From IMG/VR virus record IMGVR_UViG_2547132281_000005: a stretch of 17,319 nucleotides of DNA, one strand, 5' to 3'. How positions within the stretch are numbered: position 1 is the first letter of the stretch; every line of letters starts with the position of its first letter. Shown here in pieces: positions 2,186-12,012 of this stretch. The position numbers and the translations under genes are program-made. The notes under the pieces are model-generated. The model was given only the letters and a program-made list of their open reading frames with translations. It did no database searches and was not told the origin of the DNA. This stretch comes from a virus. Lineage: Duplodnaviria; Heunggongvirae; Uroviricota; Caudoviricetes.

Positions 2186-2603
2186 CTACCTGCATCAGGT
2201 TGTTTTTTGTTTCTTCCGCCTCCCGGATCCGGAACAGTTTTTCTGCTTCCGTATCCTTCACCCAGGCTGTGCCGTTCCACTTCTGAAACTCCCCTTCCGG
2301 CGATAACCAGGTAACATTTTCCGGTAACGGACCGAGTTCAGAAATAAATAACTCGTCCCCTGACGCTACGTCATAAACCGTTTTACCCCGATGGTCTTCA
2401 ACGAGATGCCACGATGCCTCATCACTGTTGAAAACAGCCACAAAGCCAGCAGGAATATCTGGTGGTGCAATATCGGTACTGTTTGCTGGCAGACCTGTAT
2501 GAGGCGGAATATATGCGTCACCTTCACCAATAAATTCATTAGTTCCGGCCAGCAGATTATAAATTTTTATGGTCCGTGCTTGTTCACTCATTCTGAATGC
2601 CAT
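2019..2603 (-). CDS. tfa: Tail fibre assembly protein Tfa (194 aa)
   Basis: Same length as lambda Tfa (194 aa) and conserved Tfa C-terminal block. Its ATG (2603-2601) overlaps the stop of the upstream fibre ORF in a TAATG arrangement, as in the lambda stf-tfa pair. Confidence 0.85.
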
Positions 2604-3550
2604 TATGCAAGCCTCACAATATAGTTAAATGCGATGTTTTTGACGGTGTTTTCCGCGTTACCCGCAGCGTTAACGGTGATGGTGTGTCCATGTGAACCAA
2701 TCGCAACGGAGTGCGTATGCGCACCAATACCTACAGTATGTGCATGTGCGCCAGAACTTGCTGCAGTACCAGACAGCGAGTGGGTATGAGCACCTGCTGA
2801 CTGTGTCTGAATACGTTGATAATACGATCTATAGGAAGAAGTCTCCGGGCTTACTTGATACTGTGAATTCTGGACATAAGTGAACCCACCGCCATCATAA
2901 AATGCTAACGCAGAACCGCCGCCTCCTGGCCAACGAATACCATTACCATGAGTATGAACACCGGCAGACCCCGTAGAGCCACTCAGACTGTGCGTATGCG
3001 CCCCGGTGTTATTCGTGGATTTAGTGCCGTAATCAAACGACGATGTGGTTTTCGTCCCCAAATCCGTACTGGATGCGCTGGCGCTGTGGGTGTGCGATTT
3101 AATGCCGTCCTGTTCCTGAGACAATACGGCCCGGCCACTGGCGGGTTTGCCCTTGATTGTCCAGCCGCGCATATCTGGAATAACACCTGAAGGATAGGCA
3201 ATAGCCAGTTTCGGATATGCTGCCTTATCAAACGTCTGCCCCTGCATGATTGCATAACCTGCAGGTGGTGTATCTGATGGCCACGGCAGCGGAACACCTG
3301 GCGGAAACGCTTCAATATTTGCCGAGCCGTCAAATTTTACGCCGTTAATTGTCCTTGCAGTTTGCAATTTGGTTGCTGTGCTTGCATTAGTCGAGGCTAA
3401 GGGCTTTTTTAACCTCGCATCCGCGCCTGCGGTAACACTGAATGAGCCATTCGGCCTGTTCTTCAGTGCATGGGGGGTGCTGGTACCAGTCTGACTTAAA
3501 TGCATGAGAATACCGCTCGTGCGTGTGGGCAAGAACGGTCGAATTATCAT
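2603..3550 (-). CDS. stf: Side tail fibre protein, C-terminal fragment (lambda orf-314-like), N-terminally truncated
   Basis: 315-aa ORF rich in G/S/T/A with repeated GAHTHS / HxH motifs and a [13 protein letters not shown] block typical of Stf C-terminal regions. The frame hits a stop at 3602-3604 just upstream and the ATG at 3550 has no RBS, so the N-terminal shaft portion is missing. Confidence 0.6.
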
Positions 3551-3578
3551 GATTGTAATATTTTGCGTTGCGTGCCAT
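3387..3578 (-). CDS. Hypothetical 63-aa protein overlapping the stf fragment in another frame
   Basis: ATG at 3578 preceded by GGAGA with a 6-nt spacer; sequence is not fibre-like ([23 protein letters not shown]...). Could instead be a chance ORF. Confidence 0.35.
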
Positions 3579-3644
3579 CGGTTTTCTCCGGTGGCACGGT
3601 GTTACTCAGCGGGAGTTCAGCCCCGCGCAAGATTGTAGATGAGT

Positions 3645-3896
3645 TTATTCTTCTGAAAAAGCAGAAAAGCCAGCTTTTATTCCGATCTCTTTCAATGCCT
3701 GTAATGAAGTGACAAACTCACCGTCGCGCAAGATAAATCCGTCCGTCACTCGGGCATCCACAAAATTAATTAACGCAGCCCCATTTTTTTGCAAACACAC
3801 AATGCGGTAATGACTAACAATATTTCCATTTTCAACGCACACAGCATAGAGGCCATCTTCACAAAAAATTTTACGCAGTTCTTCGATGTTCATCAT
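3645..3896 (-). CDS. Hypothetical 83-aa protein
   Basis: Tandem ATG ATG at 3896-3891 preceded by GGAAGGA with a 5-nt spacer. No recognisable family. Confidence 0.5.
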   Translation of the reverse strand: MMNIEELRKIFCEDGLYAVCVENGNIVSHYRIVCLQKNGAALINFVDARVTDGFILRDGEFVTSLQALKEIGIKAGFSAFSEE

Positions 3897-4011
3897 CAGA
3901 ATCCTTCCGGATAATTAGCTCTCCCCTTTAAGGGACCATCCCTCTTATCCCTGCGCGCTACTTAAGTATTTTTGATTCTATTCCGGCACCGTCCAGAACT
4001 TCAAACGCGTT

Positions 4012-4043
4012 GAAAATAAAAACAAAAACCCGCCGAAGCGGGT
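4012..4043 (-). terminator. Rho-independent terminator of the hok transcript
   Basis: On the minus strand: stem ACCCGC / GCGGGT (4028-4043) with 4-nt loop, followed by TTTTTGTTTTTATTTT (complement of 4012-4027). Confidence 0.55.
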
Positions 4044-4112
4044 TAAGTGCGGGTGCGTTGAGGATGCCTGCCACATCAGAGGTGGCGAGGGATTTCTCCC
4101 TCGCCGGGTCTC

Positions 4113-4268
4113 TTACTCCTCAGGTTCGTAAGCTGTGAAGACAGCGACCTCCGTCTGGCCGGTTCGGATTCGTACCTCGCAGAGGTCTTTCCTCGTTACC
4201 AGTGCCGTCACTATGACGGTTAAACAGATGACGATCAGGGCGATTAGCATCGCCTTTTGCTGCTTCAT
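4113..4268 (-). CDS. hok: Hok/Gef family type I toxin (51 aa)
   Basis: MKQQKAMLIALIVICLTVIVTALVTRKDLCEVRIRTGQTEVAVFTAYEPEE closely matches the Hok/Gef family as I recall it. ATG at 4268 preceded by GGAGA; stop TAA at 4113-4115. Confidence 0.85.
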   Translation of the reverse strand: MKQQKAMLIALIVICLTVIVTALVTRKDLCEVRIRTGQTEVAVFTAYEPEE

Positions 4269-4325
4269 AGCCTGCTTCTCCTTGCCTTTCGGCACGTAAG
4301 AGGCTAACCTACGTGTGTAGAGCAT
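4113..4325 (-). CDS. mok: Mok (modulator of killing) reading frame, in-frame N-terminal extension of hok
   Basis: 70-aa ORF sharing the stop and frame with hok, as in chromosomal mokC/hokC. Confidence 0.55.
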   Translation of the reverse strand: MLYTRRLASYVPKGKEKQAMKQQKAMLIALIVICLTVIVTALVTRKDLCEVRIRTGQTEVAVFTAYEPEE

Positions 4326-4370
4326 AGGTATGGCCTCAGATTAATGTTAAGCGTCTTGCCGGACGCGTAA
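4295..4370 (+). ncRNA. sok: Putative Sok-like antisense RNA (position inferred, boundaries approximate)
   Basis: Inferred from hok/sok organisation: the antisense RNA should overlap the mok initiation region. A plus-strand hairpin GCGTC-ttgccg-GACGC lies at 4351-4366 but lacks a clean U-run, so the end is uncertain. Confidence 0.25.
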
Positions 4371-4443
4371 TGTTAACTGGGGCTTTTCTCTATCTGCCTT
4401 TGGTGTTGATGCCCGAGGCAGATAGCCTCAAGCACCCGCAGCA

Positions 4444-4472
4444 ATTCTACTTAACTACCGTTACCTCGCCAA
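4444..4472 (-). promoter_or_regulatory. Candidate sigma-70 promoter for the hok/mok mRNA
   Basis: Minus strand reads TTGGCG (complement of 4467-4472), 17-nt spacer, TAGAAT (complement of 4444-4449). A 9-bp stem 4390-4398 / 4417-4425 sits in the predicted 5' leader. Confidence 0.4.
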
Positions 4473-4479
4473 TATGAAA

Positions 4480-4569
4480 TCAATCAGAAAGGTGATCCAT
4501 AAGAACAACAGCAAGACAATAAATTGCCATTACAGCAGCAATAGCCAGCGCACATTTGAGAACCAGCAC
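4480..4569 (-). CDS. Candidate small hydrophobic peptide (29-30 aa, type I toxin-like)
   Basis: AGGAGG (complement of 4575-4580), 5-nt spacer, GTG at 4569; encodes VLVLKCALAIAAVMAIYCLAVVLMDHLSD, then TGA (4482-4480). The DNA here is TGY-repetitive and open in several frames, so this may be chance. Confidence 0.25.
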   Translation of the reverse strand: MLVLKCALAIAAVMAIYCLAVVLMDHLSD

Positions 4570-4947
4570 CACAACCTCCTGTATTGGACGTACACCAGTC
4601 CTGATAAATATGAGGCTGTCTCGTCAGTGATTCAATACAACTACTGGGTATAGTTTCTATGATTTTGTTCTGTGGAAATGGAAAACAGCAACCAGTCACC
4701 ACCAGCACTTCTTTAAACATGCCAAGTCACACGCAAGCCAACATTATAGTTCCCTTTGAGCGAGCAGATGAAGCTAGCAAAAATATTGATCACTTAGGAT
4801 GCATTACTAACGTTGCTATGTGTTAACGAACAGGGAGTGGGTCATCAGCATAAATATTTATGCAGTAGGTTTCTTTTAGGACTAGATTAATCAAAAACAT
4901 TTAGATAAAATTATAAAATCAAGAAATTGGTGGCAATTAATCTTTAA

Positions 4948-4976
4948 TTGTGCCAGCTGAATTTCGTTATTATAGA
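4948..4976 (+). promoter_or_regulatory. Candidate promoter for the membrane-protein/methyltransferase operon
   Basis: TTGTGC (4948-4953), 17-nt spacer, TATAGA (4971-4976) in an AT-rich region upstream of the GGAGAG SD and ATG at 5011. Confidence 0.3.
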
Positions 4977-5326
4977 AGATTAGCTTTTTTTTGAATGTTT
5001 GGAGAGTAAAATGTTAGAACCACCAAAGAGTTATAATGAAATGTTGCCTATGCTCCATAAGGCGACTTTTATTACTACATTTATATTTTACCTATCATTA
5101 GTCATTTATGGCTACATGCCATTGGTTGGCATTAATGCCAAGTATATCCCCCCCGTTAAAGACTACGAGGAATTTATTAAATGGATATTAACCTTTGGCA
5201 TATTACCAATTGCATCTTCAGTTTTTTGGTCAGTAATTAGTGGAGCTTTAGATCTACATAATAATGTAGCAAAAATTATTGGAATAAGGAAGATGTGGGA
5301 TAGTCATTTAATTATTAAACCATTAG

Positions 5327-6521
<1,195 letters not shown>

Positions 6522-6911
6522 TTAGCAAAAATTGCAGGCGTTACGAGAAAATTAACTACTGATGAATCTCACAAGGTAATGAGTAAACTGTATTACCCAG
6601 AAGTTAAAGAGTTAAAAGACAAACATTACGTTGAACTTTTCTGGAACAAAGTTTATTACTTTTGGGTTTTCTTTGAACATACAGTAATCGCATTTGTTAC
6701 TATTTTAATAATAAGTATCGCCAAATTAACAAATATATTCTCTGTTACTGGCTCTTTAATTAATCTTTGGTTGTGGATTATTTCTCTTGTCGCATTTGAC
6801 TTCCTTATTTTCATAGCATCAGTTAAACCAAGAACAGAAAGCCAAGTAAGACAAATACCTGATAGCAAAATAAAAGAATTCTTTAACAATAACAATATTT
6901 TTTAAACGAGG

Positions 6912-7571
6912 TTGATTTTGAATTACAAAATAAATGGAATAAACATACGTTCAGAAAATGCAGCGAAACCGCACACTATGCCATCTAACTATCTCTGTAA
7001 ACAGATTGAAAGCACTAATAAAAATGGCAATGCCCTTGATTTTGGATGTGGAAAACTTAGATATTCAGAACAATTAGTAAATAAATTTGAAACTGTGACA
7101 TTTTTAGATTCCAGAAGACAACTAGAAAGAGTGCAAATTATCAGAGGTGTACAAACCACGATTCCAGATTACGTGATAAATAACTATAAGAATGCTAATA
7201 TTGTTTCTTATGAAAATATAGATAAAATAACAAATCATTATGATTTCATACTTTGCGCAAACGTGCTTTCCGCAATTCCATGTGAATCCACAATTCACAA
7301 AGTCCTCAGTGCGATTAGAGAATTATTAAAGAGTGATGGTGAAGCACTGATTGTCAATCAATACAAAAGTTCTTATTTCAAGAGGTACGAGAGCGGTATT
7401 AAACATTTGCATGGGTATATATACCAAAACTCTCGTAATGCTTTCTACTATGGTTTATTAGATGTGGATACTGTAAGTAAAATATGCTCAGATAATAATT
7501 TAGAAATAATAAAATCATGGAGCAAAGCAGGTAGTTCATATGTGGTTGTTGGTAAACATATACATATTTAG
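6912..7571 (+). CDS. TehB-like class I SAM-dependent methyltransferase (about 217-219 aa)
   Basis: Motif I ALDFGCGKL, acidic LDSR, YDFILCANVLSAIP and LKSDGEALIV blocks resemble TehB-type methyltransferases. Likely start is TTG 6918 (GAGG 6908-6911, 6-nt spacer) or TTG 6912; begins 7 nt after the membrane-protein stop. Confidence 0.7.
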   Translation: MILNYKINGINIRSENAAKPHTMPSNYLCKQIESTNKNGNALDFGCGKLRYSEQLVNKFETVTFLDSRRQLERVQIIRGVQTTIPDYVINNYKNANIVSYENIDKITNHYDFILCANVLSAIPCESTIHKVLSAIRELLKSDGEALIVNQYKSSYFKRYESGIKHLHGYIYQNSRNAFYYGLLDVDTVSKICSDNNLEIIKSWSKAGSSYVVVGKHIHI

Positions 7572-7885
7572 TTTATTTCAACAAATTATTAGAAAGAGTG
7601 ATTTGCTTGTTAATTATTAGCTCGGCAGTGCCGGATCAACATGACCCTGCCACTTAGGCCATTGCCGGTTTACCTACTTTTGTAAGGTTCAGCATGAAGT
7701 TTTTATATACTCTTCCTAATATCAATAGTGATGCTCGCTTATGTTAGCTGCTTCTTGTACATAGTAGCCTTCTCCGACAGTACTGCAATGAGCGGAGAGT
7801 AAAAGTCGATAAACAATAAGGAGGTTCACAATAAATATTTCTCGGTGAAACTTTCAAAGCATTCTCTGTTTTGCTAAATCGACAA

Positions 7886-8785
7886 TTATAAATCAACAAC
7901 ATTTAGTGTTATATCAATATTATTTAGCCTTGCAATCTCTGATGAATCACTTGCTATTTTAGCTTTTAATTTATCAATATTAATCATATCTTCATGGCTT
8001 ATATAAACCATATCACCTTGGTTAACTTTAGATTTGTTCACTATGGCTTGAATAACAGACAAATCATCCATTACACCTCTCATAAATTTCACCATGCTTT
8101 GATCTTTGAAGTCAGATATCGATTTTGAGCGTTGCTTACGTTGAATTGTTCCTTTTGTAATTACTTCATTAATTTCTTTTAAACCAGTGAGCATATCAGA
8201 CAGACTGCCTTCGCAACTCATCCGATGTTTTATTGCATTGCGATTAATAATATTGAGTATAATTTCGAGTGAATCTTTATCACTCCATGGATGTAATGAT
8301 GTATAATCATGATGGCGTCGAATGGCGTCAATCATATCCTGGACCATATCTTCATCTGCTTTATCGCAAAGTTCATTCACGAAATAGCTGGGGTCGATTA
8401 TTTTACAATAACTTGGAGTTAGGTATCTTGAGGCTTTACAAAAACCAAAAATATATAAAGTAGAGTATTTATCTTTCAGACTCTCTCCTATTTCATTTGT
8501 TTCCTCAAAAGATTCGATAGTTTTTTTAATTTTTGCTGGACTTGCATTCGTAGTAACTTGAACTGCTATCATGTTTTTATTATCAGCTAAATCAATGGCG
8601 GGAAAATTAACTTTAATCTGATTCATGTTTACCAGTTCACCCATTTTCAGCGCGCGAAACATAAAGATGGTCAATGACTCAATTATTCTTTCCATGTCAT
8701 GAAAGCCTGCCTGTTTGCGTTGCGCGATATAAAGCTGGAGTAGTGCAATATCACTCTGTAAGTTTCTAATAAGTGGATCAATCAT
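7886..8785 (-). CDS. Hypothetical 299-aa protein, AT-rich orphan (candidate defence/abortive-infection gene)
   Basis: ATG at 8785 with AGGA upstream; long uninterrupted ORF, convergent with the methyltransferase. No recognisable catalytic motif (no HExxH, no Walker A, no TM segments). Confidence 0.7.
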   Translation of the reverse strand: MIDPLIRNLQSDIALLQLYIAQRKQAGFHDMERIIESLTIFMFRALKMGELVNMNQIKVNFPAIDLADNKNMIAVQVTTNASPAKIKKTIESFEETNEIGESLKDKYSTLYIFGFCKASRYLTPSYCKIIDPSYFVNELCDKADEDMVQDMIDAIRRHHDYTSLHPWSDKDSLEIILNIINRNAIKHRMSCEGSLSDMLTGLKEINEVITKGTIQRKQRSKSISDFKDQSMVKFMRGVMDDLSVIQAIVNKSKVNQGDMVYISHEDMINIDKLKAKIASDSSEIARLNNIDITLNVVDL

Positions 8786-9037
8786 AGCTAATAATCCTTT
8801 TCAATGAAGCTGGAGGTGTGTTTAACTATTAGTTAAATTTCTATTTTTATAGAAACAAGCTTTACAACTTCATCAAAGTTTCTCAAATCCTAATCCACTT
8901 TGCAAATCCACTAACCATGCTGAATGCTTTCTGTTGTTAAACATATCCGCTGCTGGCACCAAGCAGACAAACACACTAACTCTACCCTACTCCACAAAAG
9001 AGCCAATCAATATCTGAACTAATAAACTTTAATCTCA

Positions 9038-9460
9038 TCACTTCAATAAATATCGAGCATTTCCCTGATAGAATGCTAGTATGCGCTGCATAACTTCACT
9101 CTTCCGGCACTCGCGACAGATTATGTTCTGACGCCTGTCGTAGCGACGTATTTCTCCGTCAGGTAATGACCAGATAAGGTCCGGATCAACCGCAGATGGT
9201 TCCTTCAGCTTTGCCCTTGAGAGCTTTTTACGGGCATTTTGCCAGTCCTTACGCGCCTGTTCAGACGGGAATAACCCGTAACCAGAGTTGTATACATCGC
9301 CGCTGGCAACCAGCTCTCTTGCGAGAACGCTCATCAGATATCTTGTCGCACCTGTCTTGACTTCCAGTTGCCGTAACGTCTCACGACCGCTCTGGCGCAC
9401 GAGTTCCACCACCTGCCCTTTAATTTTTTCCCGCTCTTCTTGTGTAAAAACTTTTGCCAC
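9038..9460 (-). CDS. Hypothetical 140-aa protein (possible DNA-binding protein)
   Basis: GTG start at 9460 preceded by AAGGGGG with a 4-nt spacer. N-terminal helical region (ETLRQLEVKTGATRYLMSVLARELV) and basic C-terminus. Confidence 0.55.
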   Translation of the reverse strand: MAKVFTQEEREKIKGQVVELVRQSGRETLRQLEVKTGATRYLMSVLARELVASGDVYNSGYGLFPSEQARKDWQNARKKLSRAKLKEPSAVDPDLIWSLPDGEIRRYDRRQNIICRECRKSEVMQRILAFYQGNARYLLK

Positions 9461-9500
9461 AAGTCCCCCTTAAAATTACCTCATGACCTGAAATCAAAAC

Positions 9501-10520
9501 TTATCCTCTGAAACCAGGCGGAATTTCTGTATCCGGTTCAGAAATATGATTAACACAACGCTGTACAGGTGAACGCCCCAGGCGGATGACCAGTTCGTCC
9601 CATTTTTCGCGGAGCTTTGACGGGCTCATGATGTTTTTTACCCAGAACGGATCCCGCTGTACCCGACCAAACATTTCACAAATTTGTCTGTGGCTTCTGC
9701 CATCCAGCATCCGCATTGTGCGCACATCATTGGCCCAGACAGTCCAGTTAGGCTCTTTTGGTCGCATGATCTCGCCATCATCACTGGCGGCCTGTTCGTA
9801 GAGACCCACGATCCGCCCCCATATCCACTGCGCACACGCCAGATCCTCCTGGCTACCCCACTGGCGTTTTTTCGCACTAAACACAACTGCGCCAGGGTGC
9901 CGGATTAAAAAATCCTGTTCAGCCGTCTGCGGGTCCGGTTGCGAAGCTTCCGGACGAAAAGTGTTTTTATTCTCTGTAGTAATCTCTGTTGTATTCTCTG
10001 TAGGATCATCGGGCCATTTTGACCCGATGACATTGGGTCGTTTTGAACCAATGGAGCGTTTCATTTTGACCTCTTCCATCGTGTCATTTTGACCTGATGG
10101 AGCGGCGCATTTTGAACCGATGGATTCGCTCAATTTGCCATCATCTAAAAGCTCGCTCCCATAGTTAATCGTGTAGAAATTGGTCATATCGCGCTTTGAT
10201 TTATTGAGCTTTTCACAACGCAAGAGCCCCAGCGTTTTCAGACTTGCAAACGCGCGCTTTAACGTTGACTCTGACCAGAATGGGAACTGTTCCAGCCATT
10301 GTTCCGTTGTGTTGTAAATCCAGCGAACACCATCACATTCCATGCCGGAATTGGTATCTCTCAACCAGTAATGCAACTGCTGCAACACAATGGCTTCATT
10401 TAAGCCAATCTTCATCGCAAGCTGTGTGTTTATAACCAGTGGGCGTTCAGCAAAAAGAAGGCTCATAATTCCATCCAGCTTTTTGTTGGTATTGCTGTCG
10501 ATACGCAAGTTTGAAAGCAA
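9501..10520 (-). CDS. Phage replication initiation protein (replisome organiser, O-like) with internal origin iterons
   Basis: N-terminal region (LNEAIVLQQLHYWL...WIYNTTEQWLEQFPFWSESTLKRAFASLKTLGLL) resembles phage replisome-organiser N-domains; repetitive middle encoded by the iterons. Real start may be ATG 10466 (MSLLFAERP...), which shortens the overlap with the upstream gene to 20 nt. Confidence 0.7.
   Translation of the reverse strand: MLSNLRIDSNTNKKLDGIMSLLFAERPLVINTQLAMKIGLNEAIVLQQLHYWLRDTNSGMECDGVRWIYNTTEQWLEQFPFWSESTLKRAFASLKTLGLLRCEKLNKSKRDMTNFYTINYGSELLDDGKLSESIGSKCAAPSGQNDTMEEVKMKRSIGSKRPNVIGSKWPDDPTENTTEITTENKNTFRPEASQPDPQTAEQDFLIRHPGAVVFSAKKRQWGSQEDLACAQWIWGRIVGLYEQAASDDGEIMRPKEPNWTVWANDVRTMRMLDGRSHRQICEMFGRVQRDPFWVKNIMSPSKLREKWDELVIRLGRSPVQRCVNHISEPDTEIPPGFRG
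10015..10123. repeat. Iteron array (candidate replication origin) inside the replication gene
   Basis: Five copies of CATTTTGA(C/A)C-N-GATGG at 10015, 10039, 10062, 10085 and 10108 (23-24 bp spacing; third copy degenerate), preceded by three TCTCTGT(A/T)G repeats at 9971-10004. Confidence 0.6.
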
Positions 10521-10968
10521 TTGCTTTTTCTATAAGTTCGTCAGTTTCACGATCCACTACGGCAGGATCAGCAAAAAGCAGTCCGGACTCCACCACATCG
10601 CCATATTCTTTGTTTAACCCGGCGATCATGTACGTGATGCTTTTTCCGTCACTAATTTCACGATACAACCTGAAATCATTAATCCGGATAGCCTCCATAA
10701 TTGCAGGCACTAGCGCCGTGAACTTTTCACGCTTATCCCTGGTGTCGATAGCCTTCCAGCGTTCGAATATCTTCACTCGATTAACGCCAAGCGCTCGCTG
10801 ATCAACCGCGCCACCTTCATCTGTGACACGCTGAACATCGATGTTCGGGCGCTCTTTCAAAGCCCAGAATGCTTCAGTGATTAATATCGTCGCCTGCTCC
10901 TGTGTCATTCCTGGTCGACATATCCAGGCATCCAGAGCCTCACGAGCCTGTTCAGGAGTGATTTTCAT
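10447..10968 (-). CDS. Hypothetical 173-aa protein in the cII / YdaT position
   Basis: Lies between the Cro-like gene and the replication gene on the same strand and overlaps the Cro-like stop by 17 nt. Family assignment is positional only. Confidence 0.55.
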   Translation of the reverse strand: MKITPEQAREALDAWICRPGMTQEQATILITEAFWALKERPNIDVQRVTDEGGAVDQRALGVNRVKIFERWKAIDTRDKREKFTALVPAIMEAIRINDFRLYREISDGKSITYMIAGLNKEYGDVVESGLLFADPAVVDRETDELIEKAIAFKLAYRQQYQQKAGWNYEPSFC

Positions 10969-11179
10969 TGTTCAACCGCCCCGCCCGCTTCGTCTTACGA
11001 TATTCGTCATAAACCTTGGGATCATACAGAAGCTCGCCGCCAGATGCCTCCTGTAGACGCATCGCGCGACCTTCAGGAACTAGCTCTTGCCATTGAGAAA
11101 CAGCAGATGGGTCAACGCCAGCAGCTTTCGCTACTTTGGCTTTCGTACCGTAAAAATTAATTACGTCTGATTTAAACAT
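10952..11179 (-). CDS. Cro-like / YdaS-like HTH regulator (about 75 aa)
   Basis: ATG at 11179 preceded by GGAGG (complement of 11184-11188) with a 4-nt spacer; HTH segment TKAKVAKAAGVDPSAVSQW; divergent from the repressor gene. Confidence 0.65.
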   Translation of the reverse strand: MFKSDVINFYGTKAKVAKAAGVDPSAVSQWQELVPEGRAMRLQEASGGELLYDPKVYDEYRKTKRAGRLNNENHS

Positions 11180-11191
11180 CGCACCTCCAAT

Positions 11192-11207
11192 ATTGAGTTT
11201 TCTCAAT
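11192..11207. promoter_or_regulatory. Palindromic operator candidate in the divergent repressor/cro promoter region
   Basis: Perfect 16-bp palindrome ATTGAGTTTTCTCAAT; the same TTGAGTTTTCTCA core recurs twice at 11729-11778. Confidence 0.45.
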
Positions 11208-11664
11208 GCTAATCACTCAAGGAATCTCAAGTCAAGGATTATTAAGATATCTAAATATGAACGAGAAAACTTTAGGTCAACGCATTAGAGAAAGACGTAA
11301 GCAGGTAGGCTTAAGTCAAAACGGTTTAAGCAAAGCTGCTGGCGTATCTGGCTCATCAATTTCATTATGGGAAAGTGACCATACAGCCCCGCGCGGGCAA
11401 AATTTGCATCGCCTCGCCGAGGTATTGCAATGTTCACCAACCTGGATACTGTTTGGCGACGAGGACAAAACACCAGCTCCCCCTGTTTCACTCGATAGTA
11501 CCCTAGACTTATCGGAAGATGAGTTAGAGATGCTGCGTTTGTATCGCGCACTTCCTAAATCAGAGCAACAAGCACAACTCAGCGAACTCCGCGCCCGCGT
11601 TGAGAATTTTAATCGCCTGTTCACCGAGCTATTAGAGGCTCGCAAACGCAACAAGCATCAATAA
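11206..11664 (+). CDS. cI/C2-like prophage repressor, N-terminal HTH (XRE family), no S24 peptidase domain
   Basis: From the internal ATG 11257 the protein starts MNEKTLGQRIRERRKQVGLSQNGLSKAAGVSGSSISLWE, like the P22 C2 / RacR-type N-terminus as I recall it. Either 11206 or 11257 may be the start; both lack a strong SD (possibly leaderless). Confidence 0.8.
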   Translation: MLITQGISSQGLLRYLNMNEKTLGQRIRERRKQVGLSQNGLSKAAGVSGSSISLWESDHTAPRGQNLHRLAEVLQCSPTWILFGDEDKTPAPPVSLDSTLDLSEDELEMLRLYRALPKSEQQAQLSELRARVENFNRLFTELLEARKRNKHQ

Positions 11665-11728
11665 TCATCCCTTCACAAAATTTTAAAGCCTTACATTTCA
11701 ATGTATTGGCTTTATCTTGCGCCAACAC

Positions 11729-11780
11729 TTGAGTTTTCTCATCAAAAAACCTTGACGAAAAATAATGAGAAAACTAAATT
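11729..11780 (+). promoter_or_regulatory. Candidate early-left promoter flanked by operator half-sites
   Basis: TTGACG (11752-11757), 17-nt spacer, TAAATT (11775-11780), bracketed by the inverted repeat TTGAGTTTTCTCAT (11729-11742) / ATGAGAAAACT (11765-11775). Confidence 0.4.
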
Positions 11781-11856
11781 ACCTCCATCAACACACCGCA
11801 CGGTGTTCTCCGCAAACAGTTCCGCTACCCCGGCGTTAAGGGGAAATGAGGTCAGC

Positions 11857-12012
11857 ATGGATACTATCGATCTTGGCAACAACGAATCTCTGGTGTACGG
11901 CGTGTTTCCAAACCAGGACGGCACGTTCACCGCAATGACGTATACCAAAAGCAAAACGTTTAAAACCGAAAATGGTGCCCGTCGCTGGCTGGAAAGAAAC
12001 TCAGGTGAGTGA
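11857..12012 (+). CDS. Hypothetical 51-aa protein (YdaF-like position and size)
   Basis: ATG 11857 with GAGG 5 nt upstream; MDTIDLGNNESLVYGVFPNQDGTFTAMTYTKSKTFKTENGARRWLERNSGE; stop TGA 12010-12012. Confidence 0.55.
   Translation: MDTIDLGNNESLVYGVFPNQDGTFTAMTYTKSKTFKTENGARRWLERNSGE

Follow-up and report, generated by a model that had tools for sequence, protein, structure and literature searches.

The open reading frame (ORF) considered here is a minus-strand frame of 29 codons beside a hok/sok toxin locus in IMG/VR virus record IMGVR_UViG_2547132281_000005, a stretch of 17,319 nucleotides (nt) that is referred to in its entirety as the window. This ORF is very probably a real gene encoding an uncharacterised single-helix small membrane protein of Escherichia and Shigella lambdoid prophages, and it is the only one of three overlapping frames in this region that exceeds chance. 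An earlier note, made from the sequence alone, had pointed to an AGGAGG followed 5 nt later by a GTG that opens a 29-residue peptide, to an overlapping Cys-rich frame of 78 residues lacking a ribosome-binding site, and to a plus-strand ORF of 58 residues from ATG 4474 that likewise lacks a Shine-Dalgarno sequence (SD), while allowing that all three could be chance. Each of these elements is indeed present, apart from the length of the plus-strand ORF, which is 59 residues rather than 58. The suggestion of chance holds for the 78-residue and plus-strand frames, but not for the 29-codon ORF, which is intact at every locus where it was followed and is under purifying selection. The elements concerned are the following:

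GTG 4569-4567 to TGA 4482-4480, minus strand: 29-codon ORF VLVLKCALAIAAVMAIYCLAVVLMDHLSD, sequence from the ORF listing
4580-4575, minus strand: SD AGGAGG, separated from GTG 4569 by the 5-nt spacer TTGTG
4484-4720, minus strand: 78-residue Cys-rich ORF, a chance ORF
4474-4653, plus strand: 59-residue ORF from ATG 4474, a chance ORF

The product of the 29-codon ORF can be written M/V-LVLKCALAIAAVMAIYCLAVVLMDHLSD (4480-4569, minus strand) and has a grand average of hydropathy of 1.86, with 2.70 for its best 19-residue window, values that favour a membrane helix. The ORF listing also contains a 30-residue version that begins at the in-frame GTG 4572-4570, a codon that is not conserved in homologues. 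In the window, no SD is found ahead of either the 78-residue frame or the plus-strand ORF. As for the composition of the region, which had been described as a TGY repeat of low complexity, TGY trinucleotides are in fact enriched (17 in 247 nt versus 8.3 +/- 3.4 for windows of equal size, placing it in the top 1.3%), and both TGCTGCTG and TGCTGTTG occur in it, but Tandem Repeats Finder reported no tandem repeats and compressibility is average (0.437 versus 0.441 +/- 0.008). A tandem repeat or low-complexity tract was therefore rejected; the TGY bias arises from Ala, Val, Leu and Cys codons.

Conservation and selection in the three frames

A 281-nt stretch that includes the gene is found in 2648 of 5426 complete E. 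coli genomes, with coverage of at least 80% in 1590, and it is also present in four sequenced phages; among 40 records sampled across the ranking, none has an annotated feature beneath it. When ten homologues were aligned, including three with an unrelated upstream flank (those of phage HannyBb, strain ECamp083 and a Shigella-type pINV plasmid), the block extending from the SD to the TGA was kept and the differences fell mostly at third codon positions. GTG 4572 varies freely in this alignment, whereas GTG 4569 is fixed, with ATG in its place in the pINV copy.

A broader set of loci was drawn from IMG/VR using two independent DNA patterns, one in the C-terminal half and the other in the SD and N-terminal half. 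In all 160 complete loci, the peptide ORF is uninterrupted, 29 codons long and free of indels, with GTG as the start codon in 159 (ATG in the remaining one, the pINV copy) and TGA as the stop codon in 159 (mutated in one). Thus, neither the frameshifts nor the stops that the earlier note had named as evidence against the peptide frame occur inside the ORF. The SD is found at a fixed spacing in almost all loci as AGGAGG, AGGAGA or GGGAGG, with a mean column conservation of 0.93. The frame-by-frame comparison that had been proposed in the same note separates the three frames clearly: across 26 distinct ORF sequences, the ratio of non-synonymous to synonymous polymorphism (pN/pS) is lowest for the peptide frame, at 0.29, compared with 0.60 for the plus-strand frame and 1.35 for the 78-residue frame. 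When the count was confined to the half of the ORF not fixed by the retrieval pattern, the distinct variants in the peptide frame comprised 24 synonymous, 22 non-synonymous and no stop-creating changes, where 26% synonymous would be expected under a uniform model (binomial p=1.5e-4). Pairwise Nei-Gojobori dN/dS, the ratio of non-synonymous to synonymous substitution rates, ranges from 0.10 to 0.38 overall and from 0.15 to 0.22 against the most divergent copies of the 29-residue type (subfamily 1), and the amino acid replacements are all conservative (A/V/T/I, D/E/N, H/R and L/F).

It is extremely improbable that either of the other two frames is the real gene. Both are open in the window, and the deposited annotation of phage HannyBb does place two plus-strand “hypothetical proteins” over the peptide gene and the hok promoter (2411-2700), one of them the equivalent of the window's plus-strand ORF. 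However, in a comparison of 115 loci the length of the 78-residue frame was anywhere between 11 and 125 residues, and only 8 loci have the 78-residue form of the window; the starts of this frame shift, several lineages carry upstream indels, and its pN/pS of 1.35 applies to the very overlap in which the peptide frame is constrained. The plus-strand ORF begins with ATA or TTA in 52 of 158 loci and stops prematurely, at 39 residues or fewer, in 50 of 158, while its pN/pS of 0.60 is what a frame lying antisense to a coding frame would show. Neither has an SD. The conservation data indicate that the HannyBb calls are on the wrong strand.

A wider family and the putative signals for its expression

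The 29-residue peptide is not an isolated sequence. On an IncY plasmid, tblastn found a match of 46% identity that corresponds to a 34-residue protein annotated as “hypothetical protein” (MSDDLSLAMEGALAVISVVGVYCLVVFLMDRMGN), whose ORF lies directly upstream of another hok gene on that plasmid. This second type (subfamily 2) is very common in prophages of the enterohaemorrhagic E. coli (EHEC) kind, with 8485 blocks in the index, and in 8 of 8 contexts shown it is flanked by nin-region genes on one side and, on the other, by hok on the same strand. An hhalign comparison relates the two subfamilies with 97.6% probability (E=4e-12, 52% identity in the alignment), and they share a length of 29-34 residues and the core A-L-A-[IV]-x2-V-x3-Y-C-L-x-V-x-L-M-[DE]-[RH]. 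The window peptide has both this core and the family position, being encoded on the same strand immediately 5' of a hok promoter in the nin region. The DNA of the two subfamilies is only 60-65% identical and their dN/dS is 0.32-0.38; constraint therefore acts on the protein and not on the DNA.

The 34-residue relatives (e.g. WP_077779993.1) thus resemble the window peptide in strand, in their slot 5' of the hokD promoter, in having one predicted helix and in their restriction to Escherichia. They differ in carrying an acidic N-terminal extension, MSDD(I/L)S, and in starting with ATG, in being preceded by another small ORF and same-strand nin genes, whereas the window peptide is preceded by a divergent cargo slot, and in a 22-nt palindrome before the hok promoter. 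They also have ribosome-profiling evidence, which the 29-residue form does not. The palindrome, CGATATGGGAATTCCCATATCG, is perfect, lies between the subfamily-2 ORF and the hok promoter (4113-4134 in locus L167; 1595-1616 in locus L165) and is retained even at loci with a truncated ORF; no T-run follows it, so it is not an obvious terminator.

The 34-residue ORF falls inside XECs145 of O157:H7 Sakai. In lysogeny broth, XECs145 has a transcriptome value of 79 reads per kilobase per million (RPKM), a translatome value of 346 RPKM, a ribosome coverage value of 4.35 and a coverage of 0.99 (PMC5597208), and it was classed as “real” and predicted to lie in the inner membrane with one transmembrane helix (Hucker et al. 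2017, PMC5597208). Together with the intact ORF at all 160 loci, this translated homologue bears out the proposal that the hydrophobic ORF with its strong SD is a genuine small membrane peptide gene.

These observations also bear upon the possibility that the ORF is not translated to a functional product, and that conservation instead acts at the DNA or RNA level, for example on a hok promoter element or on the junction of the cargo slot, with the reading frame being incidental. The ORF 3' end is kept next to the hok promoter when the remainder has been replaced, and the region does border a recombination-prone cargo slot, both of which would suit such a scenario. It is nonetheless very unlikely given the synonymous excess and exclusively conservative replacements, the retention by subfamily 2 of the frame, length class, SD and YCL...LMDR core at such low DNA identity, the exchange of GTG for ATG as the start codon in one copy and the ribosome footprints on the homologue.

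For the transcription of a gene encoding a small membrane protein at this site, the following minus-strand elements upstream of the ORF are relevant:

4635-4630, minus strand: -35-like TTGAAT, 17 nt upstream of CATATT, conservation 0.83
4612-4607, minus strand: -10-like CATATT, conservation 0.93, putative promoter of the peptide gene
4595-4584, minus strand: leader motif GTGTACGTCCAA (GTrYrCGTC[A/C]A), more conserved than its surroundings in all lineages

The arrangement of TTGAAx, a variable 17-nt spacer (conservation 0.76) and CATATT is common to lineages with otherwise unrelated flanks, and the -10 and the SD, at 0.93 each, are the best conserved blocks upstream of the ORF. From this pattern, we infer that TTGAAT-17-CATATT is a weak sigma-70 promoter with a start near 4600. 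Since the upstream neighbours are divergent cargo genes, lysogenic expression would need a promoter of its own. The leader motif GTGTACGTCCAA is not accounted for by either the coding or the promoter model; its CGTC core belongs to a run of five consecutive positions whose conservation is 95% or higher across 46 distinct upstream sequences. No terminator was found between the peptide ORF and the hok promoter, which makes read-through into hok likely.

The reading of the peptide as a type I toxin, which it had been noted to resemble, is not supported. If the peptide were itself such a toxin, silenced by an antisense RNA and by mRNA structure, it would constitute a second toxin-antitoxin unit beside hok/sok. 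It is small, hydrophobic and single-helical, and it adjoins a type I locus. Furthermore, RNAalifold pairs the leader motif and SD region with the last codons of the ORF through 13 pairs, in which 95.6% of cells are paired. However, this SD-to-3'-end helix has no compensatory changes and is equalled by its shuffle control, and the mRNA comprising the leader and ORF folds no better than shuffled sequence (minimum free energy z = -0.32), so a conserved mRNA structure hiding the SD appears unlikely. Within 3800-5400, sok on the hok leader is the only Rfam family to reach threshold, and no promoter-like site was found on the plus strand across the ORF or just downstream of it. The SD is strong, has optimal spacing and appears accessible, hhalign against Hok gives a probability of just 0.6%, no family match supports a toxin, and, unlike silent toxins, the homologue is translated with a high ribosome coverage value in exponentially growing EHEC. 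A second type I toxin is accordingly quite unlikely.

The identification of the ORF as a small membrane protein gene must be balanced against several points that count against it. Firstly, many of the sampled loci are closely related, and the counts are therefore not independent. Secondly, the family is confined to Escherichia and Shigella, so its evolutionary depth is small, and the peptide has no significant match in Pfam, PHROG, NCBIfam or PADLOC. Thirdly, the promoter hexamers agree with the consensus at 8 of 12 positions, which is below the promoter-scan threshold and hence was not called, and the -35 is absent or replaced in about 10 loci. Lastly, the direct expression evidence belongs to the 34-residue subfamily and not to the 29-residue form. 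Even there, the XECs145 start was placed 60 nt further upstream than it should be, so that the interval overlaps the end of another small ORF, designated pepA; given this overlap with the pepA 3' end and the multi-copy nature of the prophage region in Sakai, its signal is not assignable to one ORF with certainty.

The distribution of the family was determined at both the protein and the DNA level. A profile search of 1.84 billion protein representatives retrieved 22 representatives of the family and no other family, and every representative whose source was looked up is from Escherichia or Shigella; the protein homologue search for the 29-residue form, with an in-frame 47-residue translation as the query, also gave these two genera only. 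A degenerate DNA scan of one genome per species likewise returned Escherichia and Shigella only, plus three contigs from metagenome-assembled genomes labelled as other genera. There is no copy upstream of ompT in the DLP12 prophage of K-12, and neither the peptide nor its relatives match the defence-protein models of PADLOC-DB 2.0. An exact-sequence look-up returned older GenBank records named “membrane protein”, “hypothetical protein” or “conserved hypothetical protein”, with entries of the identical sequence from REL606 and BL21(DE3)-type E. coli B genomes among them. A literature search on the peptide strings and on small proteins of the hok and nin regions turned up XECs145, listed in a supplement, and no other mention. 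Predictions of the gene under generic names already exist, and a relative figures in a high-throughput survey; neither a named family nor an assigned function goes with them.

The ORF is also carried by virulence plasmids, with 143 plasmid records, 124 of them from Shigella. On the pINV of enteroinvasive E. coli (EIEC) strain RMDEC364 (1419-1704), an intact ATG-started peptide ORF and a remnant of the hok promoter and leader are located some 290-380 bp ahead of icsP, within the intergenic region that separates icsP from ospZ on Shigella and EIEC virulence plasmids. This intergenic region has been studied for its control by VirB and H-NS. The presence of the peptide ORF and the hok remnant implies that it is partly a lambdoid prophage relic.

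Linkage to hok and the prophage setting

The peptide TGA lies 8 nt ahead of the promoter-like -35 of hokD, and the coordinates of the hok leader, sok and promoter place the ORF just upstream of the hok promoter:

4472-4444, minus strand: promoter-like TTGGCG-17-TAGAAT of hokD, from the promoter scan; the hok leader begins at about 4437
4263-4437, minus strand: hok mRNA 5' leader and sok region, Rfam RF01794, 115.3 bits, E=4e-27
4113-4325, minus strand: mok, 70 residues, contains hokD
4113-4268, minus strand: hokD, 51 residues; E. coli 55989 has the identical region annotated as hokD

Given this proximity, the peptide could be conceived of as a functional partner of Hok, either as an antidote or enhancer at the membrane or because its transcription tunes hok/sok, the whole forming a three-part unit. 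Two subfamilies of roughly 50% identity are both located immediately 5' of a hok promoter on the same strand, there is no terminator in between, and loci without the ORF often retain its last codons joined to the hok promoter. Moreover, among the 142 subfamily-1 loci with enough downstream sequence, hok is downstream of the peptide in 127. The other 15 have no hok and unrelated DNA instead, which in the one annotated example (ECamp083) is a convergent DUF1971 gene, and on pINV the ORF is kept beside a decayed hok, of which only the promoter and leader remnant remains before icsP. In a further sample obtained with the hok leader alone (120 stretches scanned, about 115 classifiable), the peptide family is upstream in approximately 40% (46 of about 115), pepA only in approximately 18% and neither in approximately 42%. 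Hok is almost invariant, whereas the peptides differ at about half of their residues with no sign of co-evolution, which argues against an obligate partnership. A functional three-part unit is therefore unlikely, and the peptide is no obligate partner of Hok. Its gene and hok often adjoin but are separable modules whose linkage is not obligatory: the peptide gene is retained while both flanks change, with variable cargo upstream and hok, a DUF1971 gene or icsP downstream.

Several of the hok loci with neither ORF keep only the last peptide codons fused to the hok promoter, e.g. next to queH. At the queH-adjacent loci, including those of O157:H7, the peptide ORF is reduced to its final 21 nt, ATGGATCACCTTTCTGATTGA (L137 and L138, about 1501-1546; L175, L182 and L215), which suggests either a recombination junction inside the ORF or a stretch needed by the hok promoter.

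The pepA ORF (MNWPEAFAITGVAMAIAFLVYVICR[WG]) parallels the peptide in being a hydrophobic ORF of 25-27 residues just upstream of hok; it occupies this slot in EHEC-type prophages and occurs at 35 of 91 hok loci. It has no detectable homology to the peptide and is absent from the window; homology of the peptide to either Hok or pepA was rejected by hhalign, with probabilities of 0.6% and 2.5%, respectively. Variants of pepA, which begins MNWPEAF..., read MNWPEAFAITGVAMAIAFLVYVICR[WG] or MTWPEAFTTVGIAMAVALVVYSICRWG (L167, 3883-3960; L165, 1365-1448), and its ATG overlaps the stop of a DUF551 gene. In some Shigella records, pepA clusters with annotated DUF551-domain proteins of 121 residues, to which it may be fused.

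The window itself is a defective Rac/Qin-type lambdoid prophage of E. coli, and the minus strand at the peptide locus is the direction of early rightward phage transcription. Its main landmarks are:

right side of the window: integrase, excisionase, repressor/Cro, YdaT, an O-like replication gene and a DUF977 gene
left side of the window: tail-fibre fragments

A large exonuclease-like gene on the right side was not identified by any search. From 3388 to 12000, the window matches a prophage of E. coli 55989 at 99.6-99.9% identity, with the exception of an IS5 insertion. The homology ends at 3388, and in the leftward region 2603-3896, rem (3645-3896) gives way at once to fragments of tail-fibre and tail-fibre-assembly genes, indicating that the Q, lysis and head genes have been deleted and that the prophage is defective. 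The IS5 copy (5327-6521, 1195 bp, with a TTAG target duplication) interrupts a plus-strand cargo gene (4999-5326 and 6522-6905) that is intact in E. coli 55989 as a 696-bp “hypothetical protein” gene. A weak isrK-like Rfam match on the minus strand at 4023-4104 (25.7 bits against a gathering score of 50) overlaps the hok 3' end and a hairpin at 4044-4027, and probably reflects mere terminator similarity.

A variable cargo slot (window 4740-9000) separates the peptide gene from the DUF977 gene; here it contains a SMEK-domain protein and a methyltransferase, and elsewhere contains a YobI NTPase, AIPR, LysR with a polyketide cyclase, QueH, unknown genes of 1.3 kb, or nothing. The SMEK-domain protein matches the PADLOC-DB model Aga_REase-PNTD1-PNTD2, and the slot therefore resembles a defence/moron hotspot, of which the peptide gene looks like the conserved right border.

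Possible mode of action and significance

Based upon these features, a tentative scheme can be proposed for a gene of this type. In a lysogen, the peptide would be expressed from its own weak sigma-70 promoter, starting near 4600, with the co-directional early rightward transcript as a further source in lytic growth; its own transcript probably continues into hok/sok. The product would insert into the inner membrane as one transmembrane helix, spanning approximately residues 6-24 and flanked by K5 and D25-R/H26...D29, and might act through helix-helix contact with a larger membrane protein or with itself, as do other bacterial small membrane proteins.

Among known systems, the Hok/Gef proteins (PF01848) are the nearest at hand: they are likewise small and prophage-borne with an N-terminal hydrophobic helix, and the peptide gene is adjacent to hok and co-oriented with it. 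However, the peptide has no Pfam match (E<=10), its hhalign probability against HokD is the 0.6% given above, and it has no periplasmic C-terminal domain, no mok-like overlapping frame, no recognised sok-like antisense RNA and no conserved fold-back structure. TisB, ZorO, ShoB, DinQ, Ibs and Ldr are toxins of 19-35 residues with a single hydrophobic helix, produced from long structured leaders with sequestered ribosome-binding sites, controlled by dedicated antisense RNAs and barely translated in growing cells. The peptide is comparable to these short enterobacterial type I toxins in size and in its single helix, but their leader structure, antisense RNA and translational silence are not seen. 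AcrZ, MgrB, MgtS and similar small proteins of E. coli span the membrane once and bind larger membrane proteins. The peptide resembles them in length class, in its one helix bounded by short charged ends, in its good SD and, presumably, in constitutive-type expression, and by analogy a similar way of working is its most likely mode. It differs from them in having no sequence relationship and no identified partner, and in being prophage-borne and confined to Escherichia and Shigella.

It is also conceivable, albeit unlikely, that the peptide family, perhaps with pepA, is a membrane-level component of the hok locus that serves as an antidote or potentiator of Hok, or is a prophage-expressed membrane effector that keeps the DNA of superinfecting phages from entering by binding an inner-membrane transporter. 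If true, either role would add a small-protein layer to a classic RNA-controlled toxin locus in a large share of E. coli genomes. Nothing known about hok/sok is overturned by the present results. What they provide is a well-supported addition to the unannotated small membrane proteins of bacteria, in the form of a gene within a stretch that is present at the coverage given above in close to 1590 of the 5426 complete E. coli genomes, yet is blank in the RefSeq records inspected. The space just upstream of prophage hok loci is evidently a recurrent home for small membrane protein genes, and this gene, which common laboratory strains carry, offers a clean target for asking what prophage-encoded micro-proteins do.

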